DNA from: Escherichia coli
GTDB lineage: Bacteria; Pseudomonadota; Gammaproteobacteria; Enterobacterales; Enterobacteriaceae
Length of the DNA: 64,000 nucleotides
Assembly: GCF_002854065.1 (NCBI RefSeq)
Contig: NZ_CP024147.1
Strand: one strand, 5' to 3'
Below, piece by piece: positions 43,144 to 64,000 of the stretch. A program made the position numbers and the translations under genes. Under the pieces are notes generated by a model that had not been told where the DNA came from, ran no database searches, and saw nothing but the letters and a program-made list of their open reading frames with translations. Position 1 is the stretch's first letter. Each line of letters starts with the position of its first letter.

Positions 43144-45342
43144 ATGTCGACTCCTGACAATCACGGCAAGAAAGCCCCTCAATTTGCTGCGTTCAAACCG
43201 CTAACCACGGTACAGAACGCCAACGACTGTTGCTGCGACGGCGCATGTTCCAGCACGCCAACGCTCTCTGAAAACGTCTCCGGCACCCGCTATAGCTGGA
43301 AAGTCAGCGGCATGGACTGCGCCGCCTGTGCGCGCAAGGTAGAAAATGCCGTGCGCCAGCTTGCAGGCGTGAATCAGGTGCAGGTACTGTTCGCCACCGA
43401 AAAACTGGTGGTCGATGCCGACAATGACATCCGTGCACAAGTTGAATCTGCGGTGCAAAAAGCGGGCTATTCCCTGCGCGATGAACAGTCCGCCGAAGAA
43501 CCGCAAGCATCACGCCTGAAAGAGAATTTGTCGCTGATTACGCTAATCGTGATGATGGTAATCAGCTGGGGTCTGGAGCAGTTCAATCATCCGTTTGGGC
43601 AACTGGCGTTTATCGCGACCACGCTGGTTGGGCTGTACCCGATTGCTCGTCAGGCATTACGGCTGATCAAATCAGGCAGTTACTTCGCCATTGAAACGTT
43701 AATGAGCGTAGCTGCTATTGGTGCGCTGTTTATTGGCGCAACGGCTGAAGCTGCGATGGTGTTGCTGCTGTTTTTGATTGGTGAACGACTGGAAGGCTGG
43801 GCCGCCAGCCGCGCGCGTCAGGGCGTTAGCGCGTTAATGGCGCTGAAACCAGAAACCGCCACGCGCCTGCGTAACGGTGAGCGGGAAGAGGTGGCGATTA
43901 ACAGCCTGCGCCCTGGCGATGTGATTGAAGTCGCCGCAGGTGGACGTTTGCCTGCCGACGGTAAACTGCTCTCACCGTTTGCCAGTTTTGATGAAAGCGC
44001 CCTGACCGGCGAATCCATTCCGGTGGAGCGCGCAACGGGCGATAAAGTCCCTGCTGGTGCCACCAGCGTAGACCGTCTGGTGACGTTGGAAGTATTGTCA
44101 GAACCGGGAGCCAGCGCCATTGACCGGATTCTGAAACTGATCGAAGAAGCCGAAGAGCGTCGCGCTCCCATTGAGCGGTTTATCGACCGTTTCAGCCGTA
44201 TTTACACGCCAGCGATTATGGCCGTCGCCCTGCTGGTAACGCTGGTGCCGCCGCTGCTGTTTGCCGCCAGCTGGCAAGAGTGGATTTATAAAGGCCTGAC
44301 GCTGCTGCTGATTGGCTGCCCATGTGCGTTAGTTATCTCCACGCCCGCGGCGATTACCTCCGGGCTGGCAGCAGCGGCACGTCGTGGGGCGTTAATTAAA
44401 GGCGGTGCGGCGCTGGAGCAGCTAGGTCGTGTTACCCAGGTGGCGTTTGATAAAACCGGTACGCTGACCGTCGGTAAACCGCGCGTTACCGCGATTCATC
44501 CGGCAACGGGTATTAGTGAATCTGAACTGCTGACACTGGCGGCGGCGGTCGAGCAAGGCGCGACGCATCCACTGGCGCAGGCCATCGTGCGCGAAGCACA
44601 GGTTGCTGCACTCGCCATTCCCGCCGCCGAATCACAGCGGGCGCTGGTCGGGTCTGGCATTGAAGCGCAGGTTAACGGTGAGCGCGTATTGATTTGCGCT
44701 GCCGGGAAACATCCCGCTGATGCATTTGCTGGTTTAATTAACGAACTGGAAAGCGCCGGGCAAACGGTAGTGCTGGTAGTACGTAACGATGACGTGCTTG
44801 GTGTCATTGCGTTACAGGATACCCTGCGCGCCGATGCTGCAACTGCCATCAGTGAACTGAACGCGCTGGGCGTCAAAGGGGTGATCCTCACCGGCGATAA
44901 TCCACGCGCAGCGGCGGCAATTGCCGGGGAGCTGGGGCTGGAGTTTAAAGCGGGCCTGTTGCCGGAAGATAAAGTCAAAGCGGTGACCGAGCTGAATCAA
45001 CATGCGCCGCTGGCGATGGTCGGTGACGGTATTAACGACGCGCCAGCGATGAAAGCTGCCGCCATCGGGATTGCTATGGGTAGCGGCACAGACGTGGCGC
45101 TGGAAACCGCCGACGCAGCATTAACCCATAACCACCTGCGCGGTCTGGTGCAAATGATTGAACTGGCACGTGCAACTCACGCCAATATCCGCCAGAACAT
45201 CACTATTGCGCTGGGGCTGAAAGGGATCTTCCTCGTCACCACGCTGTTAGGAATGACCGGACTATGGCTGGCGGTGCTGGCAGATACGGGTGCGACGGTG
45301 CTGGTGACAGCGAATGCGTTAAGATTGTTGCGCAGGAGATAA
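43144..45342 (+). CDS. zntA: Zn/Cd/Pb-exporting P1B-type ATPase
   Basis: 732-aa ORF; N-terminal metal-binding GMDCAAC, CPC motif (IGCPCALV), phosphorylation site DKTGTLT. Confidence 0.95.
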   Translation: MSTPDNHGKKAPQFAAFKPLTTVQNANDCCCDGACSSTPTLSENVSGTRYSWKVSGMDCAACARKVENAVRQLAGVNQVQVLFATEKLVVDADNDIRAQVESAVQKAGYSLRDEQSAEEPQASRLKENLSLITLIVMMVISWGLEQFNHPFGQLAFIATTLVGLYPIARQALRLIKSGSYFAIETLMSVAAIGALFIGATAEAAMVLLLFLIGERLEGWAASRARQGVSALMALKPETATRLRNGEREEVAINSLRPGDVIEVAAGGRLPADGKLLSPFASFDESALTGESIPVERATGDKVPAGATSVDRLVTLEVLSEPGASAIDRILKLIEEAEERRAPIERFIDRFSRIYTPAIMAVALLVTLVPPLLFAASWQEWIYKGLTLLLIGCPCALVISTPAAITSGLAAAARRGALIKGGAALEQLGRVTQVAFDKTGTLTVGKPRVTAIHPATGISESELLTLAAAVEQGATHPLAQAIVREAQVAALAIPAAESQRALVGSGIEAQVNGERVLICAAGKHPADAFAGLINELESAGQTVVLVVRNDDVLGVIALQDTLRADAATAISELNALGVKGVILTGDNPRAAAAIAGELGLEFKAGLLPEDKVKAVTELNQHAPLAMVGDGINDAPAMKAAAIGIAMGSGTDVALETADAALTHNHLRGLVQMIELARATHANIRQNITIALGLKGIFLVTTLLGMTGLWLAVLADTGATVLVTANALRLLRRR

Positions 45343-45348
45343 GGCAAA

Positions 45349-45412
45349 CCGATCGCAACATTGAGCGCGATCGGTCCCCTCGCTCCTCTGGGGAGAGGGT
45401 TAGGGTGAGGGG
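45349..45412. repeat. intergenic hairpin plus G-rich palindromic repeat between zntA and tusA
   Basis: Arms ccgatcgc/gcgatcgg, then cccctcgctcctctggggagagggttagggtgagggg; a spurious ORF across it translates to LTLTLSPEERG. Confidence 0.4.
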
Positions 45413-45443
45413 AAAAGGCGGCATCGAAGCCAATCTGCCCCCA

Positions 45444-45689
45444 TCAACCACCTTTACGAATCAAATAACGATAAGGCAGTCCATCCGTCTCTTTGGCAAC
45501 CAGTTCGTGTTCCATAAAGGTACAAAACCCAGGGATATCGCGGGTCGTCGCCGGATCGTCAGCAATAATCAGCAACGTTTCACCTGGCTGCATATTGCGC
45601 ACTGTTTTGCGCACCATCATTACTGGTTCCGGGCAGCGCAGGCCAAGTGCGTCGAGTGTGTGGTCAGGGCTGGAAAAGAGATCGGTCAT
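45444..45689 (-). CDS. tusA: sulfur carrier protein (tRNA 2-thiouridine synthesis)
   Basis: 81-aa [28 protein letters not shown] (conserved CPxP cysteine). Confidence 0.95.
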
Positions 45690-45909
45690 TTTCTTCTCAT
45701 CACATAAAAAAACGGCGCTAGTTTACGCCCTGTGAGTCCGTAAGCAAACCAGGTTAACGATTGCGTAAAAATTAACCATTGCATTGTCAACGTAAAGCAG
45801 TATCATGCGGCGGCTCGAAAAAAGGGTAAGCACGTTATTATGTTAAGGTAACAGACGTGTCGTACGTATTGGGTTCCCTCACCCCAATGGTTAATCAAAA
45901 AGGTACAAT

Positions 45910-46575
45910 ATGAACGTTTTCTCGCAAACTCAACGCTATAAAGCGTTGTTCTGGTTATCGTTATTTCATCTGCTGGTGATCACCTCCAGTAACTATCTGG
46001 TTCAGCTTCCCGTCTCCATTTTTGGTTTCCATACCACCTGGGGCGCGTTTAGCTTTCCGTTTATCTTTCTCGCTACCGACCTGACCGTACGTATTTTTGG
46101 CGCACCGCTGGCCCGTCGTATCATCTTTGCGGTGATGATCCCGGCATTGCTGATCTCCTACGTCATCTCGTCGCTATTCTATATGGGTTCATGGCAGGGA
46201 TTCGGCGCACTCGCCCACTTCAACCTGTTTGTCGCCCGTATCGCCACCGCCAGTTTCATGGCCTACGCGCTGGGACAGATCCTCGACGTGCACGTTTTTA
46301 ACCGCCTGCGTCAGAGTCGCCGCTGGTGGCTGGCACCGACAGCGTCCACACTGTTCGGTAACGTCAGCGACACGCTGGCCTTTTTCTTCATTGCCTTCTG
46401 GCGTAGCCCGGATGCCTTTATGGCTGAACACTGGATGGAAATCGCGCTGGTCGATTACTGTTTCAAAGTGTTAATCAGTATCGTTTTCTTCCTGCCAATG
46501 TATGGCGTATTACTCAATATGCTGTTGAAAAGACTGGCAGATAAATCCGAAATCAACGCTTTGCAGGCGAGTTAA
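45910..46575 (+). CDS. yhhQ: queuosine-precursor transporter family membrane protein
   Basis: 221-aa polytopic ORF MNVFSQTQRYKALFWLSLFHLLV... Confidence 0.9.
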   Translation: MNVFSQTQRYKALFWLSLFHLLVITSSNYLVQLPVSIFGFHTTWGAFSFPFIFLATDLTVRIFGAPLARRIIFAVMIPALLISYVISSLFYMGSWQGFGALAHFNLFVARIATASFMAYALGQILDVHVFNRLRQSRRWWLAPTASTLFGNVSDTLAFFFIAFWRSPDAFMAEHWMEIALVDYCFKVLISIVFFLPMYGVLLNMLLKRLADKSEINALQAS

Positions 46576-46647
46576 AGGTTCGTTATCAGAGTTGTGATAA
46601 GATGGATGAATGAGCCGTTATGGCCGTTTATCGAAAGGAAGAAGTCA

Positions 46648-47205
46648 ATGCGCAATCTGGTTAAATATGTCGGAATTGGCCTGCTGGTTATGGGGCTTGC
46701 GGCCTGTGATGATAAAGACACTAACGCTACGGCGCAGGGTTCGGTCGCGGAAAGTAACGCTACCGGGAATCCCGTCAACCTGCTTGATGGCAAGTTAAGT
46801 TTCTCGCTGCCAGCGGATATGACCGACCAGAGCGGTAAGCTGGGAACGCAGGCCAATAACATGCATGTCTGGTCCGACGCCACCGGTCAGAAAGCAGTCA
46901 TCGTCATCATGGGCGATGATCCGAAAGAAGATCTGGCGGTGCTGGCGAAGCGTCTGGAAGATCAGCAACGTAGCCGCGATCCGCAGCTGCAAGTGGTAAC
47001 CAATAAAGCCATTGAGCTGAAAGGTCACAAAATGCAGCAGTTAGACAGTATTATCTCCGCGAAAGGCCAGACGGCGTACTCTTCCGTTATTCTGGGTAAC
47101 GTGGGTAATCAACTGCTAACCATGCAAATTACGCTGCCAGCTGACGATCAGCAAAAAGCGCAGACAACCGCAGAAAACATCATTAATACGCTGGTTATTC
47201 AGTAA
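46648..47205 (+). CDS. dcrB: periplasmic lipoprotein DcrB
   Basis: ORF 46594..47205; ATG at 46648 gives [20 protein letters not shown] (lipobox). Confidence 0.9.
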
Positions 47206-47208
47206 GTT

Positions 47209-48426
47209 TTAAGATGATGAGGCGGCCTCAGGGACGTGTTCCGGAGGCCGTTTTTTTAATCGCCACGTCAGTAATAACGCGATTGCGACCAGTCCCGCCG
47301 CCGCCAGATAAATCACCGGTACGCCCGCCCAGCTCATCACCAGCCCAGCCAGTGGTCCGGTCACGCCAAGCGATAAATCCATAAATACGGTGTAAGTTGC
47401 CAGCGCCGCCCCCTGATTTTGCTGCGGAACCGCTTTTACCGCCACTACACCCAATGCCGGGAACACCAGCGAAAACCCGGCCCCCGCCAGTAAGACGCCG
47501 ATTTTCGCCATCCACGGCATAGTCGCCACGCCAACCAGTAGCAGGCCGATTATCTCAACGCTAAAGCAAATCATCGCTACGTTTAAGCCGCCGATACGGT
47601 TAATGCCGTTAGGGAATAACAAACGCGTACCGACAAACGCACAGCTAAACAGCGTCAGCGCGAAAGCCGCACCGTCCCAACCTTTAGCGTCATAAAACAG
47701 CGTGATAAAGGTGGCGATGACGCCAAATCCGGCGGAAGCCAACGCCAGCGCCATACCGTATAGCCAGACGCGCCCAAGCACCGCGCGAAACGGCAGCGGT
47801 TTGCCTTTACTGGCTTTTACCGTCGGACGCGGGATCGCCAACAAAATGGCCACCAGCGCCACGGCCATAATGATTAACGCTAACGCCTGCAAGCCGCCCC
47901 AGTGATAAAACACGACACCTAACGGCGCACCCATCGCCATCGCCCCATAAGTGACAATACCGTTCCACGAAATCACCCGTCCGATATGCAGCGAGCCAAC
48001 CACGCCAACGCCCCACAGGGTCGATCCCGTTCCGGCAAAACTTTGCCCAATCCCAAGGATGACGCGTCCCAGGCAAAGTAATAACAGGCTGATGACGGGC
48101 AGACTGGCGGTTAATCCTGCCGTCAGATATCCCAGACCGCTCAAAAAGCAGCCGCATAAACCGAAGACGACAATCTTTTTGGGGCCCAGCAAATCGGCGT
48201 AACGTCCGGCATGAGGACGGCTCAGCAAGGTGGCAAAATATTGCAGGCTGATAACCAATCCTGCCCAGAAAGCGCTAAAGCCCATCACATCATGGACATA
48301 GCCCGGTAATACAGCGAGCGGCAACCCGATGGTGAGGTAGCTGGCGAAGTTAAACATGACAATGGAGACAATGCGCAAATTCAGGCGCAATCCGTTTAGC
48401 GCGGGTTCGGCTACGGGTTCGGGCAT
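47209..48426 (-). CDS. yhhS: MFS transporter
   Basis: ORF 47209..48468; ATG at 48424-48426 gives MPEPVAEPALNGLRLNLRIVSIVMFNF; 12 predicted TM segments. Confidence 0.9.
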   Translation of the reverse strand: MPEPVAEPALNGLRLNLRIVSIVMFNFASYLTIGLPLAVLPGYVHDVMGFSAFWAGLVISLQYFATLLSRPHAGRYADLLGPKKIVVFGLCGCFLSGLGYLTAGLTASLPVISLLLLCLGRVILGIGQSFAGTGSTLWGVGVVGSLHIGRVISWNGIVTYGAMAMGAPLGVVFYHWGGLQALALIIMAVALVAILLAIPRPTVKASKGKPLPFRAVLGRVWLYGMALALASAGFGVIATFITLFYDAKGWDGAAFALTLFSCAFVGTRLLFPNGINRIGGLNVAMICFSVEIIGLLLVGVATMPWMAKIGVLLAGAGFSLVFPALGVVAVKAVPQQNQGAALATYTVFMDLSLGVTGPLAGLVMSWAGVPVIYLAAAGLVAIALLLTWRLKKRPPEHVPEAASSS

Positions 48427-48557
48427 GAGGATCACCACATTTTTACAACAGTGTTTCATTTTTACCACGTGCTGACGTGAAAATCAGCAGTAAGAATCAG
48501 AATATTGCTGGCGTGACTCCCGCTACACTTAATACAAAAAGTCACAAGGAAGCCCCA

Positions 48558-49607
48558 ATGGAAACCCCTCAACCCGATAAAACGGGCATGCACATTCTGC
48601 TCAAGCTGGCCTCGCTGGTAGTGATCCTGGCGGGCATTCACGCAGCGGCAGATATCATTGTGCAGCTGTTACTGGCGCTGTTTTTTGCCATCGTCCTCAA
48701 CCCGCTCGTCACCTGGTTTATTCGTCGGGGAGTACAACGCCCCGTTGCCATTACGATTGTAGTGGTGGTGATGCTGATCGCACTAACCGCGCTGGTCGGC
48801 GTACTGGCGGCATCGTTTAACGAATTTATCTCTATGCTGCCGAAGTTTAATAAGGAGCTGACGCGCAAACTTTTTAAATTGCAGGAGATGTTGCCTTTTC
48901 TTAATTTGCATATGTCGCCGGAGCGAATGCTGCAGCGGATGGACTCGGAAAAAGTGGTTACCTTCACCACGGCGCTAATGACCGGGCTTTCCGGGGCAAT
49001 GGCGAGCGTGCTTTTGCTGGTGATGACCGTAGTTTTTATGCTGTTTGAAGTGCGCCACGTCCCTTACAAAATGCGTTTTGCGCTGAATAACCCACAGATT
49101 CACATCGCAGGATTACACCGCGCACTTAAAGGCGTTTCGCATTATCTGGCGTTAAAGACGCTACTCAGTTTATGGACAGGTGTCATCGTCTGGCTGGGGC
49201 TGGAGCTGATGGGGGTGCAGTTTGCGCTGATGTGGGCAGTACTGGCGTTTTTGCTTAACTACGTGCCCAATATCGGCGCGGTAATTTCCGCCGTACCGCC
49301 AATGATTCAGGTGCTGCTGTTTAATGGTATTTACGAATGTATTCTGGTCGGCGCATTGTTTTTAGTTGTCCATATGGTCATCGGCAATATTTTAGAGCCA
49401 CGGATGATGGGCCATCGCCTGGGGATGTCCACCATGGTGGTATTTCTTTCATTGTTAATTTGGGGATGGCTGCTCGGCCCGGTAGGGATGCTACTTTCGG
49501 TGCCATTAACCAGCGTGTGTAAAATCTGGATGGAAACGACGAAAGGCGGTAGCAAACTGGCGATTTTACTGGGGCCGGGCAGACCGAAAAGTCGGTTACC
49601 GGGTTAA
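48558..49607 (+). CDS. yhhT: AI-2E/PerM-family transporter
   Basis: ORF 48477..49607; ATG at 48558 (RBS aagga) gives METPQPDKTGMHILLKLASLVV. Confidence 0.9.
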   Translation: METPQPDKTGMHILLKLASLVVILAGIHAAADIIVQLLLALFFAIVLNPLVTWFIRRGVQRPVAITIVVVVMLIALTALVGVLAASFNEFISMLPKFNKELTRKLFKLQEMLPFLNLHMSPERMLQRMDSEKVVTFTTALMTGLSGAMASVLLLVMTVVFMLFEVRHVPYKMRFALNNPQIHIAGLHRALKGVSHYLALKTLLSLWTGVIVWLGLELMGVQFALMWAVLAFLLNYVPNIGAVISAVPPMIQVLLFNGIYECILVGALFLVVHMVIGNILEPRMMGHRLGMSTMVVFLSLLIWGWLLGPVGMLLSVPLTSVCKIWMETTKGGSKLAILLGPGRPKSRLPG

Positions 49608-49626
49608 TAGCACCTCCTGAGCAGGC

Positions 49627-49657
49627 AATGGCCACCGTTTATCTAACAGTGGCCATT
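49627..49657 (+). terminator. yhhT terminator hairpin
   Basis: Arms aatggccac (49627-49635) and gtggccatt (49649-49657), followed by tgatttg. Confidence 0.45.
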
Positions 49658-49659
49658 TG

Positions 49660-49986
49660 ATTTGAGGAAATGATGAAACATTATTCAGAAAATTAATTTA
49701 AAAAAACCATTCCTTAAGTCAAATATATATAAACGCCGAATAGCGATTAAATCCTTCTCAAAGAATGCACTGATAACATTGTGTTATTTTTATTGCCTCA
49801 TTTTTCTCACTCACTTATAGTTGGTCCCTGCTGGCAGTAATTTAGTCATTTCAGAGATTTTTACTCTGATGTGCACTTACTGACTTATCTCACAAGTAAT
49901 TTTTTCTCTAAATAAAGAATAGTGATGCCAGCAATTACAGTTAAATCTTGCTTTACTCGTAAAAACAATACTTTAATGGGGTTCTA
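49660..49986. other. AT-rich junction between core (yhhT) and accessory cluster; probable island boundary and cluster promoter
   Basis: Visibly AT-rich (long A/T runs), no ORFs in any frame, immediately precedes the first cluster gene. Confidence 0.6.
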
Positions 49987-50376
49987 ATGAGACATTACAT
50001 GAAGTGGTTTGCGGCTATTGCTGTTGTGGGTGCTTTAGCAGGTTGCGCGCGTACTGCGCCAATTGATCAGGTTCACTCAACCGTCAGCGCTGGTCATACC
50101 CAGGAACAAGTGAAAAAAGCGATTCTGAAAGCTGGCGTTGAACGCAAATGGATTATGTCCGAAGCCGGACAAGGCATAATTAAAGCACGTCAACAGTCAC
50201 GCGATCATTCAGCGGAAATACGCATTAACTACACGGCATCCAGCTACGATATCAATTATGAAAATAGCCAGAACCTACAAGCGTCAGGCGGACAAATTCA
50301 TAAAAACTACAATCGCTGGGTCCGCAATCTCGACAAAGATATTCAACTGAATTTGTCAGCGGGCGCAGATTTATAA
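49987..50376 (+). CDS. small lipoprotein, first gene of the APE-type cluster
   Basis: 129-aa ORF MRHYMKWFAAIAVVGALAGC (signal peptide plus lipobox); alternative start 49999; lower GC than downstream genes. Confidence 0.7.
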   Translation: MRHYMKWFAAIAVVGALAGCARTAPIDQVHSTVSAGHTQEQVKKAILKAGVERKWIMSEAGQGIIKARQQSRDHSAEIRINYTASSYDINYENSQNLQASGGQIHKNYNRWVRNLDKDIQLNLSAGADL

Positions 50377-50435
50377 TTCTTCCTAAAGTCGGGCCGTTGC
50401 GGTCCGATAATAATTTAATTCCCTCTTAACAGGTT

Positions 50436-51503
50436 GTGCCCAACATGTACGAACAGGATTCTCTTAGCGCACTGGATGCGATTACCGAAGCTCAACGCAT
50501 TGCCTTTGCCCCTATGCTTTTTCAAACAGCACTCTGCCTACGTAATGCGGGTGTACTTTCATATCTGGATCGGCAAGGCAAACATGGCGCAACGCTGGCT
50601 GATATCACCGAACATAGCCATATCAACGAATATGCTGCCAGCGTTCTGTTAGATATGGGCTTAAGCGGGCGAATTATTACCTGTAAAGAGGGAATTTATT
50701 ACCTGGCGAAAATCGGTCATTACCTCCTGCATGACACTATGACTCGCGTGAATATGGATTTCACCCAGGATGTCTGTTACCAGGGGCTCTTCTTCCTCGC
50801 CGATTCACTCAATGAAGGAAAACCTTCCGGGTTAAAAGTATTTGGCGACTGGTCGACGATATATCCGGCACTTTCGCAATTACCAGACGCCGCTCGTGAA
50901 AGCTGGTTTGCGTTTGATCATTACTATTCAGATGGCGCATTTAACGCCGTACTGCCTTATGTATTCGCCAACAACCCCACAACATTGTACGATGTAGGCG
51001 GCAATACGGGTAAGTGGGCTTTGCGTTGCTGCAAATACAATGAAAACATCGCCGTGACGTTATTAGATCTGCCACAACAAATCGTACTAGCGAAAGAAAA
51101 TATCGCGAATGCAGGTTTTTCTGATCGCATAGATTTCCATGCGGTGGATATGCTAAGCGATGCCCCATTACCGGGCGAGGCTGATATCTGGTGGATGAGC
51201 CAATTTTTAGACTGTTTTTCACCCGAACAAATAATTAGCATACTCAGCAAAATTGCCAGCGTAATGAAGCCTGGCGCAAAAGTTTGCATCATGGAGTTGT
51301 TCTGGGATGCGCAGCGGTTTGAAGCAGCATCGTTTAGCCTGAACGCGTCCTCACTTTATTTTACCTGCATGGCAAACGGTAACAGCCGTTTCTATAGTGC
51401 AGAGAAATTTTACGACTATCTGAATAAAGCAGGATTCCAGGTAGCAGAGCGCCACGATAATTTAGGCGTTGGGCATACACTTTTGATATGCCAAAAGAAA
51501 TAA
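50436..51503 (+). CDS. apeB: SAM-dependent (O-)methyltransferase
   Basis: 355-aa ORF; Rossmann SAM motif LYDVGGNTGKWAL. Symbol inferred from conserved ape cluster order; verify. Confidence 0.7.
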   Translation: MPNMYEQDSLSALDAITEAQRIAFAPMLFQTALCLRNAGVLSYLDRQGKHGATLADITEHSHINEYAASVLLDMGLSGRIITCKEGIYYLAKIGHYLLHDTMTRVNMDFTQDVCYQGLFFLADSLNEGKPSGLKVFGDWSTIYPALSQLPDAARESWFAFDHYYSDGAFNAVLPYVFANNPTTLYDVGGNTGKWALRCCKYNENIAVTLLDLPQQIVLAKENIANAGFSDRIDFHAVDMLSDAPLPGEADIWWMSQFLDCFSPEQIISILSKIASVMKPGAKVCIMELFWDAQRFEAASFSLNASSLYFTCMANGNSRFYSAEKFYDYLNKAGFQVAERHDNLGVGHTLLICQKK

Positions 51504-51543
51504 TCGTCACTTAATAATTTTGGTTTACCGCGGGCGCGCGTTG

Positions 51544-52266
51544 ATGAAATTTACATTAAATATTACCGACTGGCAGGCACTGGCGCCTGGACTTAGCGAA
51601 GCGCAGCAATGGCAAGCATGGTCGCGCCAGCCGTGGGCGATTGACCCTGCCGCGCCGTTGGCAAAATTAAGTGAACTGCCAATGATGACCGCCCGCCGCC
51701 TCAGTTCAGGCAGCAAACTGGCTGTTGAATGCGGTCTGGCAATGCTACGCCGCCATCAGCCAGACGCCGTTTTGTATACCAGTCGTCATGGCGAACTGGA
51801 GCGCAATTACCGCATTGTTCATGCACTGGCAACCGAACAGGCGCTTTCTCCGACGGACTTCGCGCTCTCCGTACACAACTCTTCCGTGGGTAACCTGACC
51901 ATTGCGGCCAAACAGCCGATCGTTTCGTCATCGCTTTCGGCTGGTCGCGACACTTTCCAGCAAGGTTTGTGTGAAGTGCTTAGTCTGTTACAGGCGGGCT
52001 ACCAGCGCGTGTTGATGGTCGATTTTGATGGCTTTCTGCCTGAGTTCTATCATCCACAACTGCCCGCAGAAATGCCGACCTGGCCGTACGCCGTCGCGCT
52101 GGTGATTGAAGCTGGCGATGAGTGGCAATGTGGAACGCAGTCAGCCATTGCGGGTAATGAAACAACACTGCCGCAAAGCATGTTGTTTTTACAGCACTAT
52201 TTACAAAATGCGGACACATTTTCACTGCCTGGCGAGCGCGTACAGTGGCGCTGGAGCCGTGGATGA
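51544..52266 (+). CDS. apeC: short KS-like partner protein (chain-length-factor-like)
   Basis: ORF 51520..52266 (TTG); ATG at 51544 gives MKFTLNITDWQALAPG; about 240 aa, far shorter than a full KAS; ATGA overlap with the next gene. Confidence 0.6.
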   Translation: MKFTLNITDWQALAPGLSEAQQWQAWSRQPWAIDPAAPLAKLSELPMMTARRLSSGSKLAVECGLAMLRRHQPDAVLYTSRHGELERNYRIVHALATEQALSPTDFALSVHNSSVGNLTIAAKQPIVSSSLSAGRDTFQQGLCEVLSLLQAGYQRVLMVDFDGFLPEFYHPQLPAEMPTWPYAVALVIEAGDEWQCGTQSAIAGNETTLPQSMLFLQHYLQNADTFSLPGERVQWRWSRG

Positions 52267-53084
52267 GTAAGCTGCTGTCACGTCTGGAGTGGACCTGGCG
52301 ACTGGTCATGACCGGGTTATGTTTTGCCCTGTTTGGTCTCGGCGGCCTGCTGCTTTCTGTCGTGTGGTTTAACATATTGTTAGTTTTGGTGTGGGATACT
52401 TCCCGCCGCCGTCGTTTGGCGCGTCGCAGCATTGCCGCCAGTTTTCGCCTGTTTTTAACTGTCGCGAAAGGGCTTGGCGTGCTGGATTATCGTATTGATG
52501 GCGCTGAAATTTTACGTCAGGAACGCGGTTGCCTCGTCGTAGCCAATCATCCCACGCTGATCGATTACGTGCTGCTGGCGTCAGTCATGCCAGAAACTGA
52601 CTGCCTGGTGAAAAGCGCGCTGTTAAAAAATCCTTTTCTTGGCGGCGTCGTGCGGGCGGCAGATTATTTAATCAACAGCGAAGCTGAAACCCTGTTACCC
52701 CGCTGCCAACAGCGACTGGCACAGGGTGACACTATCCTGATTTTCCCCGAAGGCACGCGAACGAAGCCCGGTGAAAAAATGACGCTGCAGCGCGGGGCGG
52801 CGAATATTGCCGTGCGCTGTGCCAGCGATTTACGCATCGTGACGATCGGCTGTAGCGAGCATCTGCTGGATAAACAAAGTAAATGGTATGACGTTCCACC
52901 TGACCGGCCGTTTTTTACGGTTGCAGTCCATGGTCGGGTTGAAATCAATAAATTTTACGATGCAACTTCACAAGAACCGGCGCTGGCAGCAAGGCAGTTA
53001 AACCGGCATCTTTTGCTTCAATTACAACAAGGTTGTTTACCTCTCTCAGGAATAAATAATGCAAGCGCTTTATCTGGAAATTAA
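52263..53084 (+). CDS. lysophospholipid/glycerol-3-phosphate acyltransferase family protein
   Basis: ORF 52245..53084; HX4D motif NHPTLIDY and FPEGTRT motif; start chosen at the ATGA overlap (52263). Confidence 0.75.
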   Translation: MSKLLSRLEWTWRLVMTGLCFALFGLGGLLLSVVWFNILLVLVWDTSRRRRLARRSIAASFRLFLTVAKGLGVLDYRIDGAEILRQERGCLVVANHPTLIDYVLLASVMPETDCLVKSALLKNPFLGGVVRAADYLINSEAETLLPRCQQRLAQGDTILIFPEGTRTKPGEKMTLQRGAANIAVRCASDLRIVTIGCSEHLLDKQSKWYDVPPDRPFFTVAVHGRVEINKFYDATSQEPALAARQLNRHLLLQLQQGCLPLSGINNASALSGN

Positions 53085-53316
53085 AAACCTCATCATCAGC
53101 ACCCTCAATCTGGACGAGTTGACGCCTGATGATATCGATACCGACGCGCCGCTGTTTGGCGACGGTTTAGGGCTGGACTCTATCGATGCCCTGGAACTGG
53201 GACTGGCAGTAAAAAATGAGTACGGCATCGTGCTCTCTGCGGAAAGCGAAGAGATGCGTCAGCACTTTTTCTCCGTCGCCACTCTGGCCTCTTTCATTGC
53301 TGCGCAACGTGCCTGA
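53059..53316 (+). CDS. apeE: acyl carrier protein
   Basis: 85-aa acidic ORF with phosphopantetheine-site motif LGLDSIDALEL. Confidence 0.8.
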   Translation: MQALYLEIKNLIISTLNLDELTPDDIDTDAPLFGDGLGLDSIDALELGLAVKNEYGIVLSAESEEMRQHFFSVATLASFIAAQRA

Positions 53317-53327
53317 GGAAAGCCATC

Positions 53328-53579
53328 ATGACAGAACAACAAACCGTCTATCAGGAAGTCTCAGCCCTGCTGGTTAAGCTGTTTGAAATCGATCCGCAGG
53401 ACATCAAACCTGAAGCGCGCCTGTACGAAGATCTGGAACTGGACAGCATCGACGCCGTTGACATGATTGTGCACCTGCAAAAGAAAACCGGTAAGAAAAT
53501 CAAGCCGGAAGAGTTTAAAGCAGTGCGTACAGTCCAGGATGTCGTCGAGGCTGTAGAACGCCTGCTACAAGAAGCCTGA
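53328..53579 (+). CDS. apeF: acyl carrier protein
   Basis: 83-aa ORF with LELDSIDAVDM motif. Confidence 0.8.
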   Translation: MTEQQTVYQEVSALLVKLFEIDPQDIKPEARLYEDLELDSIDAVDMIVHLQKKTGKKIKPEEFKAVRTVQDVVEAVERLLQEA

Positions 53580-53583
53580 TCTG

Positions 53584-54165
53584 ATGTCGGGCATTCGCTC
53601 GCTACCGATGATTAAGCTGCTGACTGGATTATTGCTGCTCGCCTGGCCGTTTGTGATTTGGTTTGGCTTAGCGCATAACGGCCTGCACTGGCTGTTGCCG
53701 CTAATAGCGTTGCTGCTTTTGTTGCGCCTGCGCCAGACCCGTCGCCAGGCGGGGCCGCTCCAGGTCGTCACACAAATCGTCGCTGTCGTGGGCATCGCAT
53801 TATGTGTCGCCAGCGTTCTGTTGAAAACACACCAGCTACTGCTGTTTTACCCGGTAGTGGTTAACGCGGTCATGCTGGCGGTTTTTGGCGGTTCGCTGTG
53901 GTCGGCAATGCCGATAGTTGAGCGGCTGGCGCGTTTGCAGGAGCCAGATCTGCCGGAAAAGGGCATGCGCTATACCCGCCGCGTCACGCAAATCTGGTGC
54001 GGCTTTTTCATCATCAACGGTGGAATTGCCCTCTTTACCGCGCTTTATGCCGATATGTCGTTATGGACCGCCTGGAACGGCATGATTGCTTATTTGTTGA
54101 TGGGAACATTAATGGCTGGTGAATGGCTGGTGCGCCGTCAGGTGATGAAAAGAGATCGCGCATGA
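53584..54165 (+). CDS. integral membrane protein of unknown function
   Basis: 193-aa ORF with several hydrophobic segments (LLLAWPFVIWFGL, VVGIALCVASVLL, ...). Confidence 0.65.
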   Translation: MSGIRSLPMIKLLTGLLLLAWPFVIWFGLAHNGLHWLLPLIALLLLLRLRQTRRQAGPLQVVTQIVAVVGIALCVASVLLKTHQLLLFYPVVVNAVMLAVFGGSLWSAMPIVERLARLQEPDLPEKGMRYTRRVTQIWCGFFIINGGIALFTALYADMSLWTAWNGMIAYLLMGTLMAGEWLVRRQVMKRDRA

Positions 54166-55523
54166 AGCAGACCTTACCGCTTGCACGCTGGCTGACTGCG
54201 CCACGCTCTGATGACACACCCATTGCGTGGCTGGACGAAAGCTTCTGGACGCTGGGCGATTTGCGTCACGATGTCGCGCAACTTATCTGCCGCTTGCAGC
54301 AACAGCCGGGTGAACGCTGGGCGCTGTGCTTTGAGAACAGCTATCTGTTTATCGTTGCCCTGCTCGCCACGCTACACGCCGGAAAAACGCCGGTGCTTCC
54401 GGGGCATAACCGTGTTATCCAGCTTAACGAGCAACGTGAACTTTTTGATGGTGTGCTTAGCGACAGCGAACTTAACTGGCAAGGTTCATTGCTGTTGGTA
54501 GCAAGTTCCCCACAAATCGCGACACAATCCTTCACCTTTGCCGCTATAGCGCCAGAGGCTTTTATCGAGCTGTTTACCTCCGGTTCCACGGGACAGCCGA
54601 AACGGGTGATTAAACCTGTTCATTTGCTGGATCGTGAAGCAGAACTGCTGGCTGAACGATTAGGCGCACGTCTGGCGGGTTGTCGTGTCGTCGGTTCCGT
54701 ATTGCCGCAGCATTTGTACGGCCTGACTTTTCGCGTTTTCCTGCCCATGGCGTTGGGATTACCGCTGCACGCCGCCATGCTCTGGTATGTCGAACAGTTT
54801 GCCGCGTTGAGTCATCAGCATCGCTATATCTTCATCAGCAGCCCGGCATTTTTGAAGCGCCTGGATACCCAGCTTTCTCCGCCACCCGTTCAGGTGCTTC
54901 TCTCTGCTGGCGGTGAGCTGCCGTGGCAGGATGTACAACACACCGCAAGCTGGCTGCGCGTCTGGCCTGATGAAATCTACGGCAGCACGGAAACCGGTGT
55001 CATCGCCTGGCGTTACCGCGAACAAGAGCAACGCCGCTGGCTACCCTTCCCTGGTATGCAGTTCCAGGCCGAAGGTGATTCTTTTCGTCTCTTTTCACCG
55101 CTGATGGCGGAAGATAACGGCCTGTTACTCGACGATCTCTTGCAGTTTAGCCAGGACGGTCAGTTCCATCTGATGGGGCGTCGTGGGCGCATCGTTAAGA
55201 TTGAAGAAAAACGTATTTCACTCCAGGAAGTAGAACAACGTCTGCTGGCGCTGGACGGTATTCGCGAGGCGGCGGCAGTTCCCGTTACGCGCGGCGGGCG
55301 TCAGAGCATAGGCGTTTTGCTGGTGCTGGATGACGAAGCTCATCTGCAATGGCAGAACGGCGGCGGGCATAGCCAGGAAATGACCTGGCGGCGTTTACTG
55401 CGCCCGACGCTGGAGCCAGTTGCTATTCCGCGTTACTGGCGCGTTATTGATGAAATGCCAGTAAACAGTATGAACAAGCGTGTCTATGCGCAATTACAGG
55501 AGTTATTTCATGAAGCCCCATGA
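54162..55523 (+). CDS. apeH: AMP-dependent synthetase/ligase (acyl/aryl-activating enzyme)
   Basis: ORF 54123..55523; start at the ATGA overlap 54162 (MKQTLPLARW); AMP-binding motif TSGSTGQPKRV. Confidence 0.78.
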   Translation: MKQTLPLARWLTAPRSDDTPIAWLDESFWTLGDLRHDVAQLICRLQQQPGERWALCFENSYLFIVALLATLHAGKTPVLPGHNRVIQLNEQRELFDGVLSDSELNWQGSLLLVASSPQIATQSFTFAAIAPEAFIELFTSGSTGQPKRVIKPVHLLDREAELLAERLGARLAGCRVVGSVLPQHLYGLTFRVFLPMALGLPLHAAMLWYVEQFAALSHQHRYIFISSPAFLKRLDTQLSPPPVQVLLSAGGELPWQDVQHTASWLRVWPDEIYGSTETGVIAWRYREQEQRRWLPFPGMQFQAEGDSFRLFSPLMAEDNGLLLDDLLQFSQDGQFHLMGRRGRIVKIEEKRISLQEVEQRLLALDGIREAAAVPVTRGGRQSIGVLLVLDDEAHLQWQNGGGHSQEMTWRRLLRPTLEPVAIPRYWRVIDEMPVNSMNKRVYAQLQELFHEAP

Positions 55524-55863
55524 AATCGAGCGCCATCAGGCACAAACGAATCACCTTGAAATTGTTCTGCATCTCAGGGCGGATCTGTTCTGGTTTCGCG
55601 GTCATTTTGCCGTGCAACCATTACTCCCAGGAGTTGCGCAAATCGACTGGGCGATGAGCTACGCGCTCAATCTGCTCGCGCCTGGCTGGCGTTTTCACTC
55701 CATTCAGAACATAAAATTCCAGTCTCCGTTGCTGCCGGAAAACCGCGTCACGCTCGCGCTTAACTGGCAGGAAGAACGCCAGATTCTGAGCTTTAGCTAT
55801 CAGCGTCACGACGGTGACGCCCGCCACACCGCCAGTAGCGGGAAGATCCGCCTATGTCGGTAA
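55510..55863 (+). CDS. apeI: hotdog-fold (3R)-hydroxyacyl-ACP dehydratase-like protein
   Basis: ORF 55480..55863; FabA/FabZ-like motif GHFAVQPLLPGV; start 55510 overlaps the upstream gene. Confidence 0.7.
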   Translation: MKPHEIERHQAQTNHLEIVLHLRADLFWFRGHFAVQPLLPGVAQIDWAMSYALNLLAPGWRFHSIQNIKFQSPLLPENRVTLALNWQEERQILSFSYQRHDGDARHTASSGKIRLCR

Positions 55864-57530
55864 ACTTTTCTCCCTGCGTGTTGATTCCCTGCTATAACCA
55901 CGGCGCGATGATGCCGGGCGTGCTGGCGCGTCTTAAGCCATTTAATCTCCCCTGTATTGTGGTGGACGACGGCAGCGATGCCGCCACGCAACAGCAACTG
56001 GATAATCTGGTTAGCGAACAGCCTGGCGTGACCTTAATTCGCTTAGCAGAAAACGCAGGTAAAGGCGCGGCAGTGATGCGTGGCTTACAGGCAGCGGCAG
56101 ACGCAGGGTTCAGCCATGCGGTGCAGGTGGATGCTGACGGTCAACATGCGATTGAAGATATCCCCAAACTGCTGGCACTCGCTGAACGACACCCTGCGGC
56201 GCTGATCTCCGGCCAGCCAATTTACGATGACTCCATCCCCCGCTCACGGCTTTACGGGCGCTGGGTCACCCACGTCTGGGTATGGATCGAAACGCTCTCC
56301 CTGCAACTGAAAGACAGCATGTGCGGCTTTCGCGTTTATCCGGTTGCGCCAACGCTGCAACTGGCAAAACACGCCACCATCGGCAAGCGGATGGATTTCG
56401 ACACTGAAGTGATGGTGCGCCTCTACTGGCAGGGAAACACCAGCTATTTCGTGCCGACCCGCGTCACCTATCCACTGGACGGGCTTTCGCATTTTGATGC
56501 CCTGAAAGATAACGTCCGCATCTCGCTCATGCACACGCGTCTGTTTTTCGGCATGTTACCGCGTATTCCTTCACTGCTGATGCGCCGCTCTTCCAGCCAC
56601 TGGGCGCGGCAGAGTGAAGTGAAAGGATTATGGGGAATGCGCCTGATGCTGCTGGTCTGGCGTCTGCTGGGAAGAACGGCGTTTAGCGCGCTGCTTTACC
56701 CGGTGGTGGGCGTCTACTGGCTCACTGCTTCTCGTGCGCGCAAAGCGTCGCAAGACTGGCTCGCCCGTGTACGACAGCATCAACCACAGGCGGCAAAACT
56801 CAACAGCTATCAGCACTTTCTACGTTTCGGTAATGCCATGCTCGACAAAATCGCCAGTTGGCGCGGCGAGCTGCAACTGGGGCGCGATGTGCTGTTTGCG
56901 CCAGGCGCAGAAGCGGCACTTAACGTCAGCGATCCGCGCGGCAAATTGCTGCTGGCCTCGCATCTTGGCGATGTGGAAGTGTGCCGGGCGCTGGCAAAAA
57001 TTCAGGGCTACAAAACCATTAACGCGCTGGTGTTTAGCGAAAACGCCCAACGCTTTAAACAGATAATGCAGGAGATGGCCCCGCAGGCCGGCATCAACCT
57101 GATGCCGGTAACGGATATCGGCCCGGAAACCGCCATCCTGCTCAAAGAGAAGCTGGATAACGGCGAATGGGTGGCGATTGTCGGTGACCGCATCGCCGTC
57201 AACCCGCAACGCGGCGGCGACTGGCGCGTCTGCTGGAGTCCGTTTATGGGCCAGCCTGCGCCCTTCCCACAGGGGCCGTTTATTCTCGCGTCTATTTTGC
57301 GCTGCCCGGTGAATCTGATTTTCGCCCTGCGCCAGCACGGCAAGCTGCATATTCACTGCGAAACCTTTGCCGACCCGCTGCTGTTGCCGCGTGGCGAACG
57401 CCAACAGGCGCTGCAAAACGCTATCGACCACTACGCCGCGCGTCTGGAACATTACGCGCTCCAGTCGCCCCTCGACTGGTTTAATTTTTTCGATTTCTGG
57501 CAACTGCCGGAAATTCAGGACAAGGAGTAA
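55854..57530 (+). CDS. bifunctional GT2 glycosyltransferase / lipid-A-type acyltransferase-like protein
   Basis: 558 aa; N-terminus CVLIPCYNHG...VVDDGSDA...DADGQH (GT-A DxD); C-terminal half resembles HtrB/LpxL-type acyltransferases. Confidence 0.7.
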   Translation: MSVNFSPCVLIPCYNHGAMMPGVLARLKPFNLPCIVVDDGSDAATQQQLDNLVSEQPGVTLIRLAENAGKGAAVMRGLQAAADAGFSHAVQVDADGQHAIEDIPKLLALAERHPAALISGQPIYDDSIPRSRLYGRWVTHVWVWIETLSLQLKDSMCGFRVYPVAPTLQLAKHATIGKRMDFDTEVMVRLYWQGNTSYFVPTRVTYPLDGLSHFDALKDNVRISLMHTRLFFGMLPRIPSLLMRRSSSHWARQSEVKGLWGMRLMLLVWRLLGRTAFSALLYPVVGVYWLTASRARKASQDWLARVRQHQPQAAKLNSYQHFLRFGNAMLDKIASWRGELQLGRDVLFAPGAEAALNVSDPRGKLLLASHLGDVEVCRALAKIQGYKTINALVFSENAQRFKQIMQEMAPQAGINLMPVTDIGPETAILLKEKLDNGEWVAIVGDRIAVNPQRGGDWRVCWSPFMGQPAPFPQGPFILASILRCPVNLIFALRQHGKLHIHCETFADPLLLPRGERQQALQNAIDHYAARLEHYALQSPLDWFNFFDFWQLPEIQDKE

Positions 57531-57533
57531 AGG

Positions 57534-57956
57534 GTGCTTAACGATCCCCGATTTACCGCTGAAGTCGAGCTGACCATTCCCTTTCACGACGTCGATATGA
57601 TGGGCGTGGCCTGGCACGGTAACTATTTTCGCTACTTTGAAGTGGCCCGCGAGGCGCTGCTCAACCAGTTCAATTACGGCTATCGGCAGATGAAAGAGTC
57701 CGGTTATTTGTGGCCAGTGGTCGATGCGCGGGTGAAATATCGCCACGCCCTCACCTTTGAGCAACGCATCCGCGTGCGTGCGCATATCGAAGAGTTCGAA
57801 AACCGTCTGCGGATTGGCTATCAGATTTTCGATGCCGAAACGGGCAAACGCGCCACCACCGGATACACCATTCAGGTCGCGGTCGACGAGCAAAGTCGCG
57901 AACTGTGCTTTGTCAGCCCCGATATTCTGTTTGAACGCATGGGAGTCAAACCATGA
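57534..57956 (+). CDS. apeK: 4HBT/YbgC-type acyl thioesterase
   Basis: 140-aa ORF (GTG start); hotdog thioesterase pattern HDVDMMGVAWHGNYFRYFEVAR. Confidence 0.75.
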   Translation: MLNDPRFTAEVELTIPFHDVDMMGVAWHGNYFRYFEVAREALLNQFNYGYRQMKESGYLWPVVDARVKYRHALTFEQRIRVRAHIEEFENRLRIGYQIFDAETGKRATTGYTIQVAVDEQSRELCFVSPDILFERMGVKP

Positions 57957-58558
57957 AATTTTTACCGCTACTGGCGCTGCTGATTAGCCCGTTTGTGAGC
58001 GCCCTGACCCTGGACGATCTTCAGCAACGCTTTACCGAACAATCGGTGATCCGCGCCCATTTCGATCAAACCCGGACGATTAAAGATCTGCCGCAGCCGC
58101 TGCGATCTCAGGGCCAGATGTTGATCGCCCGCGACCAGGGGCTGTTGTGGGATCAAACCTCACCGTTCCCCATGCAACTATTACTGGACGATAAACGCAT
58201 GGTGCAGGTGATCAACGGTCAGCCGCCGCAAATCATCACGGCAGAAAACAACCCGCAGATGTTTCAGTTTAACCACCTGCTGCGCGCGCTGTTCCAGGCC
58301 GATCGCAAAGTGCTGGAACAAAACTTCCGCGTCGAATTTACCGACAAAGGCGAAGGCCGCTGGACGCTGCGCCTGACCCCAACCACCACGCCGCTGGATA
58401 AAATTTTCAACACCATCGATCTCGCCGGGCAAACCTATCTGGAGAGCATTCAACTTAATGATAAACAGGGCGATCGCACCGATATTGCTCTTACCCAACA
58501 TCAACTGACGCCAGCGCAACTGACCGATGACGAACGCCAACGTTTTGCCGCCCAGTAA
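57953..58558 (+). CDS. LolA-like outer-membrane lipoprotein carrier
   Basis: 201 aa, signal peptide MKFLPLLALLISPFVSA; LolA-family length and layout. Confidence 0.65.
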   Translation: MKFLPLLALLISPFVSALTLDDLQQRFTEQSVIRAHFDQTRTIKDLPQPLRSQGQMLIARDQGLLWDQTSPFPMQLLLDDKRMVQVINGQPPQIITAENNPQMFQFNHLLRALFQADRKVLEQNFRVEFTDKGEGRWTLRLTPTTTPLDKIFNTIDLAGQTYLESIQLNDKQGDRTDIALTQHQLTPAQLTDDERQRFAAQ

Positions 58559-60845: not shown

Positions 60846-61426
60846 TCAAATCCACATTCTGGCGAGCGTTCGCCCTGACCGCTACGCTTATCCTCACCGG
60901 CTGTAGCCACTCGCAACCAGAACAGGAAGGCCGCCCGCAGGCGTGGCTGCAACCTGGCACGCGCATCACGCTGCCGGCACCAGGGATTTCACCCGCAGTC
61001 AATTCGCAGCAACTGTTGACCGGCAGCTTCAACGGCAAAACCCAGTCGCTGTTAGTGATGCTTAACGCCGACGATCAGAAAATCACCCTTGCCGGGCTGT
61101 CGTCGGTCGGCATTCGCCTGTTTCTGGTGACCTACGATGCGCAAGGGCTACGCGCCGAGCAATCCATCGTCGTCCCACAGTTACCGCCCGCAAGTCAGGT
61201 ACTGGCTGACGTGATGCTCAGCCACTGGCCGATTAGCGCCTGGCAACCGCAACTTCCCGCAGGATGGACACTTCGCGACAACGGTGACAAACGCGAGCTG
61301 CGTAACGCCAGCGGCAAACTGGTCACGGAAATCACCTATCTGAATCGCAAGGGCAAACGCGTGCCAATCAGCATTGAGCAGCATGTCTTTAAATACCACA
61401 TCACCATTCAATACTTAGGTGACTGA
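60842..61426 (+). CDS. lipoprotein (DUF3261-like)
   Basis: 194 aa, MIKSTFWRAFALTATLILTGC lipobox. Confidence 0.65.
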   Translation: MIKSTFWRAFALTATLILTGCSHSQPEQEGRPQAWLQPGTRITLPAPGISPAVNSQQLLTGSFNGKTQSLLVMLNADDQKITLAGLSSVGIRLFLVTYDAQGLRAEQSIVVPQLPPASQVLADVMLSHWPISAWQPQLPAGWTLRDNGDKRELRNASGKLVTEITYLNRKGKRVPISIEQHVFKYHITIQYLGD

Positions 61427-62597
61427 TATGATTTATATTTCCGCCGTCGGCATGATCAACGCCCTGGGAAATAACCTTGACGAAATCGCAACCAACCTGA
61501 CTCGCGGTGTTGCTCCCGGCATGCGCCCGCGCGCAGGCTGGTTGCAGGGGCATCCGCAGGCGGTCCTGGCTGGCGTGGATGGCGAGCTTCCGCTTATCCC
61601 GGAAAAATTCGCTGCGCACCGCTCGCGCAACAATCAGATCCTGCTGGCGGCGCTGGCGCAGATCCAGCCGCAGGTTGATGACGCTATCGCGAAATATGGT
61701 CGCGAGCGCATCGCGATTGTACTTGGCACCAGCACCTCCGGCCTGCATGAAGGCGACACGCACGTTAACCTGCGCACCCACGGGCAGCCGAGCACCACAT
61801 GGCACTACGCGCAACAGGAACTCGGCGATCCGTCGCGTTTTCTCAGCCACTGGCTGGCGCTCGACGGCCCGGCCTATACCCTTTCAACCGCCTGCTCTTC
61901 CAGCGCCAGAGCGATAATCAGCGGGCGCAGGCTTATCGAAGCGGGGCTGGTCGATGCCGCCATTGTGGGTGGCGCAGACACCCTGAGCCGGATGCCGATT
62001 AACGGTTTTCACAGCCTCGAATCGCTGTCGCCAACCTTATGTCAGCCGTTTGGTCGTGACCGCGCAGGTATCACCATTGGTGAAGGGGCGGGGCTAATGC
62101 TGCTGACCCGGGAACCGCAGCCCATCGCGTTGCTGGGCGTTGGTGAATCGAGCGACGCTTACCATATTTCGGCCCCGCATCCGCAGGGCGAAGGGGCGAT
62201 CCGCGCCATTAATCAGGCACTGACCGATGCGCAGCTTACGCCAGATGACGTCGGCTATATCAACCTGCACGGCACCGCCACGCAACTCAACGACCAGATT
62301 GAATCGATGGTGCTTAACGCCCTGTTTGGCGAACGCGTACCGTGCAGCTCCACCAAACATTTGACCGGCCACACGCTGGGCGCGGCGGGCATTACCGAAG
62401 CAGCAATCAGTATGTTGATCTTACAGCGTGATTTACCGCTGCCCGCCCAAGATTTCAGCCTGTCGCCACGCGATCCCACGCTGCCACCCTGCGGCATTAT
62501 CGAAAAACCGCAGCCGCTGGCTCGTCCGGTGATCCTGTCCAATTCCTTCGCCTTTGGCGGCAATAACGCCAGCATTCTGCTCGGGAGGGTTTCGTGA
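61419..62597 (+). CDS. apeO: beta-ketoacyl-ACP synthase (KAS I/II-like)
   Basis: 392 aa; active-site Cys TACSSS, His motifs HGTATQLND and GHTLGAAG. Confidence 0.85.
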   Translation: MTDMIYISAVGMINALGNNLDEIATNLTRGVAPGMRPRAGWLQGHPQAVLAGVDGELPLIPEKFAAHRSRNNQILLAALAQIQPQVDDAIAKYGRERIAIVLGTSTSGLHEGDTHVNLRTHGQPSTTWHYAQQELGDPSRFLSHWLALDGPAYTLSTACSSSARAIISGRRLIEAGLVDAAIVGGADTLSRMPINGFHSLESLSPTLCQPFGRDRAGITIGEGAGLMLLTREPQPIALLGVGESSDAYHISAPHPQGEGAIRAINQALTDAQLTPDDVGYINLHGTATQLNDQIESMVLNALFGERVPCSSTKHLTGHTLGAAGITEAAISMLILQRDLPLPAQDFSLSPRDPTLPPCGIIEKPQPLARPVILSNSFAFGGNNASILLGRVS

Positions 62598-63789: not shown

Positions 63790-64000
63790 CACGTCGCGTA
63801 GTGATTACAGGAATGGGCGGCGTGACTGCCTTTGGTGAAAACTGGCAGGACGTTTCTGCACGCTTACTGGCGTATGAAAATGCGGTGCGCAAAATGCCGG
63901 AGTGGCAGGTCTACGATGGCCTGCACACCCTGCTTGGCGCGCCTGTTGATGATTTCACGCTACCGGAGCACTATACCCGCAAGCGTATCCGTGCGATGGG
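63786..64000 (+). CDS. apeR: beta-ketoacyl-ACP synthase (partial, N-terminal 71 codons; continues beyond window)
   Basis: ATG at 63786 (ATGA overlap with KR); MTRRVVITGMGGVTAFGENWQD (KAS N-terminus). Confidence 0.75.
   Translation, partial: MTRRVVITGMGGVTAFGENWQDVSARLLAYENAVRKMPEWQVYDGLHTLLGAPVDDFTLPEHYTRKRIRAM

Follow-up and report, generated by a model that had tools for sequence, protein, structure and literature searches.

Organization of the locus

The stretch of E. coli DNA analyzed here (64,000 nt, hereafter the window) was annotated through the RefSeq record of E. coli strain 100416 (NZ_CM128593), which was 100% identical over the region tested. The core gene yhhT is followed by a spacer of 379 bases, and the spacer by a 19-gene single-strand block that corresponds in the RefSeq annotation to apeA-apeR plus acpT of an aryl-polyene (APE) cluster. 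The features of the region are listed below.

48558-49607, + strand: yhhT (AI-2E family transporter), core gene, from the annotation of the 100%-identical record
49608-49986, + strand: yhhT-apeA spacer (the tract), 379 bases, the first DNA of O-island 138, present in cluster-bearing genomes only
49627-49665, + strand: candidate intrinsic terminator of yhhT, with a AATGGCCACCGTT / AACAGTGGCCATT stem, a 5-nt loop and a TTGATTTG tail
49773-49787, no strand assigned: palindrome ATAACA-TTG-TGTTAT just 5' of the -35 hexamer, read from the sequence
49793-49821, + strand: best sigma-70 candidate, -35 TTGCCT, 17-nt spacer, -10 TATAGT (49816-49821)
49977-49989, + strand: ribosome-binding site GGGG (49978-49981) and apeA ATG (49987), placed from homologue lengths, the paralogue and syntenic loci
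49987-50376, + strand: apeA, lipoprotein and first APE gene, from the annotation and the lipobox LAGC in its translation
50445-64000, + strand: apeB onward, the rest of apeA-apeR-acpT, which continues beyond the window end

Genes 1-9 of the block encode a lipoprotein, a methyltransferase, a chain-length factor, an acyltransferase, two carrier proteins, a COG4648 protein, an AMP-binding protein and a dehydratase. Genes 10-19 encode a glycosyltransferase, a thioesterase, a LolA-like protein, an MMPL transporter, a DUF3261 protein, a ketosynthase, the ApeP dehydratase, FabG2, a further ketosynthase and AcpT. The APE core set was found in its conserved order, namely the ketosynthases and chain-length factor (apeC/O/R), the carriers (apeE/F), the dehydratases (apeI/P), the reductase (apeQ) and the transporter (apeM). 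From apeA to acpT, no gap exceeds 68 bases, the majority of the genes overlap, and a single base separates apeR from acpT. The start of acpT falls at about 65017 in window-equivalent coordinates.

The locus, its genes and its flanks yhhT and acpT are the same as those of O-island 138 in O157:H7 EDL933 (S-loop 225 in Sakai, ECs4325-4341), and the 379 bases of the tract open this island. A rearrangement in K-12 reportedly separated ('orphaned') AcpT from its substrates, going by the title of De Lay & Cronan 2006. The name ApeA was taken from PMC8253772, which gives the APE cluster of O157:H7 as the source of the substrates of AcpT. Array papers assign Z4851-Z4861 to O-island 138, and Z4850, listed as a putative O-methyltransferase, is apeB (PMC2907692). 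By its position before Z4850, apeA would be Z4849, and as the first locus of S-loop 225 it would be ECs4325.

The start of apeA was reconsidered. RefSeq places the start of the lipoprotein gene at the second ATG (49999), which gives a protein of 125 aa. Among the matches listed, ApeA homologues were mostly 129 aa long; the others were mostly 125 aa long, with their start placed at the second ATG. At the RefSeq start position the paralogous cluster reads ATA, which leaves the upstream ATG as the only conserved one. The 29 syntenic loci described below share a purine-rich, Shine-Dalgarno-like block (GGGAGTT/GGAGTT) ahead of the ATG. These comparisons support 49987, not 49999, as the true start of apeA. 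In strain 7CC, an IS1A was inserted at the ribosome-binding site and start codon of apeA (equivalent to 49984-49993), which cuts the operon off from the tract; about 10 bases are common to the two flanking alignments, as a target duplication would produce.

Base composition and coding content of the spacer

The G+C content of the tract was 33.2%, compared with 53.2% for the whole window, and only 0.23% of all 379-base windows in the 64,000 nt were as low. The neighbors yhhT and apeA had G+C contents of 51.2% and 45.9%, respectively. The A+T content was 67% over the 379 bases, and the 100-base minima fell to 25% G+C. The sequence-only reading had described the tract as AT-rich relative to its flanks, and the sliding G+C calculation agreed, placing it well below the local average. 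The same reading had the first cluster gene lower in G+C than the rest; this was the case for apeA and equally for apeB (45.9% each), against 50-61% for the later cluster genes. Its distance of roughly 330 bp between the hairpin of yhhT and the first gene was close, as 329 bases were measured from the hairpin to the ATG of apeA.

No ORF of at least 30 codons lies wholly within the tract on either strand, and at this threshold the earlier description of the tract as ORF-free was borne out. An 85-codon ORF antisense to yhhT (49378-49635) covers the first 28 bases of the tract, and the tract itself contains four ORFs of 20-27 codons, none of them supported.

The livK-panM core spacer in the same window (34239-34661) has 423 bases and a G+C content of 33.8%. 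It is equally AT-rich, so the tract is not the only such stretch in the window. The two spacers are comparable in length and G+C content, and both are ORF-free. The livK-panM spacer is present in all strains and separates divergent genes, whereas the tract has one direction of transcription and carries the probable terminator of the upstream gene. The other core spacers of at least 130 bases in the window had G+C contents of 41-46%. An AT-rich, promoter-bearing spacer is an entirely ordinary kind of object. The lowest 100-base G+C content of the window (24%) was found within the livK-panM divergent spacer.

The end of yhhT

The inverted-repeat scan found a hairpin at 49627-49657 with arms of 13 nt and a loop of 5 nt, followed by TTGATTTG. 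Its center is about 35 nt past the stop codon of yhhT. The 81-nt stretch containing the hairpin folded at -22.8 kcal/mol (z = -1.7). In most of the syntenic genera, a hairpin of another sequence occupied the same place (e.g., AAAACTACC-N6-GGTAGTTTT). The terminator scan did not call the hairpin at 49627-49665, because the T-run in its tail, UUGAUUUG, is interrupted. From its stem and position, this hairpin is probably the intrinsic terminator of yhhT, and yhhT transcripts would end there. As the terminator scan made no call, some read-through from yhhT past the hairpin is possible.

Distribution among E. coli genomes and the two junctions

A total of 5426 complete E. coli genomes were surveyed. 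The tract, together with apeA, was found in 569 of them, and the K-12 junction was found over its full length in 4856 (89.5%). These two counts sum to 5425, so only two states exist, with no intermediates. The expectation of the sequence-only reading that cluster-less strains lack the tract was confirmed by alignment, which found it in 0 of the 4856 genomes. Eight of the surveyed genomes gave two matching places. About 255 further genomes had only the apeA of the pathogenicity-island type (60-80% identity class), and one or the other type of APE cluster was carried by about 15% of complete E. coli genomes in total.

On the left side, the homology of cluster-less E. coli to the window ended at 49603 by megablast and at the yhhT stop by eye; the stop codon TAA (49605-49607) was the last position alignable with cluster-less strains. 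At the stop, the window reads GGT TAA, Escherichia sp. E1V33 reads GGA TAA and K-12 reads GGA TGA, and the two cluster-bearing forms part from K-12 directly after this codon. The island-specific sequence therefore begins at position 49608. On the right side, identity with K-12 resumed 20 bases before the stop codon of apeR. In K-12, the yhhT stop is followed by 35 unrelated bases and then by ATTAAACGTTGGCCCTGA, after which comes the acpT ATG. This 18-mer encodes IKRWP*, the C-terminus of ApeR. The closest solved structures, the ApeR-type synthases 4ewg and 7f27, end in ...NNFAFGGINTSLIF(K/R)R, which indicates that this C-terminus is a feature of the enzyme family and not derived from the host. 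The 'empty' site thus contains the last five codons of apeR, which an insertion could not have left there. On this comparison of sequences, the polymorphism is a deletion and not an insertion.

The same arrangement was seen outside E. coli. In Salmonella enterica and S. salamae, yhhT and acpT are separated by 51 bases. When the Salmonella spacer was compared with the K-12 filler (GGCGACAAGTGATACGAT against GGCGACAGATGCTACAAT), 2 and 6 of 5000 shuffles scored as well. The adjacent coding sequence showed the ordinary divergence between E. coli and Salmonella, so the shared junction does not stem from recent transfer. The cluster-less allele looks like one old event common to Salmonella. In C. 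freundii, E. hormaechei and K. aerogenes, apeR abuts acpT. Typical Salmonella is cluster-less at yhhT-acpT; some Salmonella, including S. enterica GCA_029590215.1, carry an APE cluster at another locus, with a KptA-like gene and unknown genes upstream.

Neither the cluster, the spacer nor any of the compared loci gave a significant match to the 35-base filler of K-12. With no source detectable, either the excision was not clean or the deletion is too ancient to be traced. A derivation from the 3' end of apeR was considered on the basis of an apparent resemblance seen by hand, which the shuffle test did not confirm. The K-12 yhhT-acpT spacer has no hairpin, so the deletion would also have taken the probable yhhT terminator and the presumed native ape promoter. 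In K-12, acpT is probably transcribed only through read-through from yhhT. The K-12 spacer contains an 18-codon ORF, whose ATG overlaps the yhhT stop and whose end lies in the apeR remnant.

Position and composition across genera

An ApeA alignment scan was performed with one genome per species, and the best 80 loci were kept. In 29 of these 80 species loci, representing about 15 named genera, yhhT lies directly upstream of apeA. The syntenic set includes Escherichia sp., many Citrobacter, Klebsiella, Superficieibacter, Lelliottia, Huaxiibacter, Leclercia, Enterobacter, Kosakonia and Pluralibacter. The 29 syntenic spacers were 265-696 bases long, with 30-43% G+C compared with 50-60% in the flanks. 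In all 80 loci, whatever their context, the 250 bases 5' of apeA were at least 6.5 points below the G+C content of the cluster. The means over the 80 loci were 35% upstream and 51-54% in the cluster. The low G+C content in 80 of 80 loci indicates that it is a property of the operon and not of the junction.

The identity between E. coli and Citrobacter was 78-85% for ApeA, 79-82% for ApeD and 77-82% for AcpT, which is present in every E. coli. These similar distances of the Ape proteins and AcpT are consistent with vertical descent.

Candidate promoter, palindrome and leader

The tract is the sole non-coding gap of more than 68 bases ahead of 19 co-oriented genes. The gaps of at most 68 bases and the overlaps among these genes leave the tract as the only place for a main promoter. 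The sequence-only reading had suggested that the cluster promoter lies here; this indirect reasoning supports it well, and the tract is by far the likeliest site.

TTGCCT-17-TATAGT matched the sigma-70 consensus at 9 of 12 positions and was the sole + strand match in the tract, with a T-rich stretch immediately 5' of it. Over 800 bases, the sigma-70 scan returned 3 sites against a shuffle mean of 1.7, so such a match by itself is weak evidence. The window and Escherichia sp. E1V33 differed by 10.7% in the spacer, and their longest identical run (49776-49828) spans both hexamers and the expected start; a run of that length was reached in 116 of 2000 shuffles, which is marginal support. The sole stretch common to the tract and the spacer of the second E. 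coli APE cluster was TAT..T-TGGTCCCTG, which falls at the -10 and start position. We infer that the hexamers TTGCCT and TATAGT form the ape promoter. Transcription would then start near 49827-49829, leaving a 5' leader of about 158 nt. No mapped transcription start for this locus was found in the searchable literature.

The 29 syntenic spacers were compared between genera by MAFFT and a 10-mer census. Their sequences could not be aligned across genera, which precludes wider footprinting of the hexamers. The only elements recurring across the 29 spacers were the position of the terminator, the ribosome-binding site with its ATG, and low-complexity A/T words.

The palindrome at 49773-49787 may be a regulator site or an UP-like element, a suggestion that we make with low confidence. 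The two substitutions that strain WL297 has in this region are confined to the 3-nt spacer of the palindrome and spare its arms; Escherichia sp. E1V33 differs at one arm base. Because IHF controls APE production in Frischella, the IHF consensus WATCAANNNNTTR was also tried, and no site was found within the tract.

Reported expression of the cluster

Reports on the expression of this and related clusters were collected. In O157:H7, an rpoS mutant showed 2-6 fold upregulation of seven O-island 138 genes between Z4851 and Z4861, and the wild-type array signals of these genes in LB were low to moderate (PMC2907692). Z4853 and Z4854 were upregulated upon contact with epithelial cells, and spinach lysate induced ECs4325-4340 as a block. 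Expression of the CFT073 cluster was higher at 37 °C than at 23 °C. The cluster of X. doucetiae was silent in the laboratory, and a single promoter inserted before apeB activated the whole pathway. IHF mutants of Frischella lost the APE pigment. Published work has linked the APE cluster to protection against oxidative stress and to biofilm formation. The expression reports fit one regulated promoter at the 5' end; none of them maps that promoter.

Interpretation of the spacer

We believe that the tract serves apeA-apeR-acpT as its native 5' control region, exposed by an old deletion, and we put the probability of this reading at about 80%. The tract would comprise three parts. The first would be the intrinsic terminator belonging to the core gene upstream, yhhT. 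The second would be an AT-rich promoter and regulatory zone, with TTGCCT-17-TATAGT (49793-49821) as its likeliest core. The third would be the leader of about 158 nt, ending in the ribosome-binding site of apeA. The deletion would have begun with the base after the yhhT stop and spared only the last 20 bases of apeR, so that acpT was left behind yhhT as an orphan. The resemblance of the tract to an 'island boundary' comes from the presence of this old deletion in most E. coli and in Salmonella.

The sequence-only reading had regarded the tract as the boundary of a horizontally acquired island. The boundary itself stood, since the tract begins at the presence/absence edge (49604-49608); the acquisition was not supported, in view of the apeR remnant, the synteny in about 15 genera and the AT-rich upstream regions in all 80 loci. 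In its full form, this alternative holds that foreign AT-rich DNA was inserted between yhhT and acpT and silenced by H-NS, which we consider unlikely. It would account for the absence of the tract from 89.5% of complete E. coli and for its beginning exactly at the junction, yet the apeR remnant in both K-12 and Salmonella makes the empty site a deletion product and not an intact target, and the order of the locus is kept in about 15 named genera. The low G+C content of apeA and apeB could likewise be taken as a foreign signature, but it is confined to the spacer and these two genes; the cluster body, at 50-61% G+C, is at or above the 53% of the window. The Ape proteins and AcpT have also diverged alike from Citrobacter, which fits vertical descent.

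Signs of mobility were sought at the locus. The annotation from livF to nikE contains no mobility gene (integrase or transposase), and no tRNA gene lies within 44000-64000. There was no phage match, and the sole match in the plasmid collection was a 4.9-Mb E. coli record, which is not a genuine plasmid. On reading, no repeat common to both junction sequences was seen. The absence of a mobility gene, a tRNA gene and a phage or genuine plasmid match argues against insertion.

As for silencing, the AT content and the TpA density (0.090 compared with 0.040 in the window) suit H-NS binding, and the composition of the tract is compatible with it. The temperature dependence of the CFT073 cluster and the laboratory silence of the Xenorhabdus cluster can be read as typical of silenced loci. 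Against this, the tract contains no match with up to 2 mismatches to TCGATAAATT, which we take to be the high-affinity H-NS nucleation motif and which occurs at 1.2 per kb in the window overall. The moderate array signals of the cluster genes in LB (PMC2907692) also speak against silencing. No H-NS occupancy was found for the locus in the literature searched, and the supplements consulted for an EHEC H-NS ChIP paper make no mention of it. It is possible that the cluster was regained by homologous recombination from another Escherichia lineage.

That the tract encodes a small RNA or leader peptide of its own, or a structured 5' leader (riboswitch or thermometer), is highly improbable: the putative leader is long (about 158 nt), and a mini-ORF, ATGATGAAACATTATTCAGAAAATTAA (MMKHYSEN, 49671-49697), lies behind a Shine-Dalgarno-like GAGGAA (from 49664) and mimics the apeA start in its first 12 bases (ATGAAACAYTAY in relatives), but the leader folds no better than shuffles (z = -0.47), an Rfam scan of 49300-50300 at E <= 1 matched no family, the mini-ORF sits 5' of the predicted promoter and differs in its length and residues across five Escherichia sequences, with all three E. 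coli substitutions non-synonymous or stop-creating, and the ORFs of 20-27 codons are without support. The likeness of the mini-ORF to the apeA start is probably a coincidence.

For the native control region, a bolder version can be put forward, which we regard as tentative and on balance doubtful. The junction would be one deletion allele older than the split between Escherichia and Salmonella, with the intact cluster still kept in about 10% of E. coli, and the tract, with its conserved block (49762-49840) and the palindrome ATAACA-N3-TGTTAT, would contain a regulator site dedicated to timing the production of the aryl-polyene lipid. If true, this would mean a very long-lived presence/absence polymorphism, or alleles replaced repeatedly through homologous recombination spanning the flanks.

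The literature already covers the island, the genes it contains and the idea of its loss in K-12, and nothing here is surprising to a specialist. The present comparisons provide the exact junctions, the 20-base apeR remnant, the finding that Salmonella shares the allele, a survey of synteny and a candidate promoter. For users of this locus, they yield the exact junctions of O-island 138, support for an apeA start at 49987 and a specific promoter candidate to examine. More generally, the edge of an 'O-island' with a sharp AT dip can be a native promoter region exposed by a deletion in the reference strain.

Comparison with the CFT073-type cluster

The APE cluster of CFT073 (c1186-c1204; Cimermancic 2014, Johnston 2021) has the same gene order from apeA to apeR. 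The CFT073-type cluster was compared through strains D8 and ETEC-2264. The identity with D8 was 92% over 14.9 kb and 95-100% over most of this length. The CFT073-type cluster lies in a pathogenicity island beside a two-partner secretion locus, whereas the cluster studied here lies between yhhT and acpT. It also has an AT-rich upstream spacer, of 515 bases and 37% G+C, which is unalignable with the tract except for the stretch TAT..T-TGGTCCCTG mentioned above. Two cassettes of only 60-70% identity to D8 were observed, one comprising the spacer, apeA and the first ~200 bases of apeB (window 49608-50640) and the other the end of apeG, apeH and apeI (about 53640-55840). Their sharp breakpoints point to recombinational mosaicism between the two E. 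coli APE clusters.
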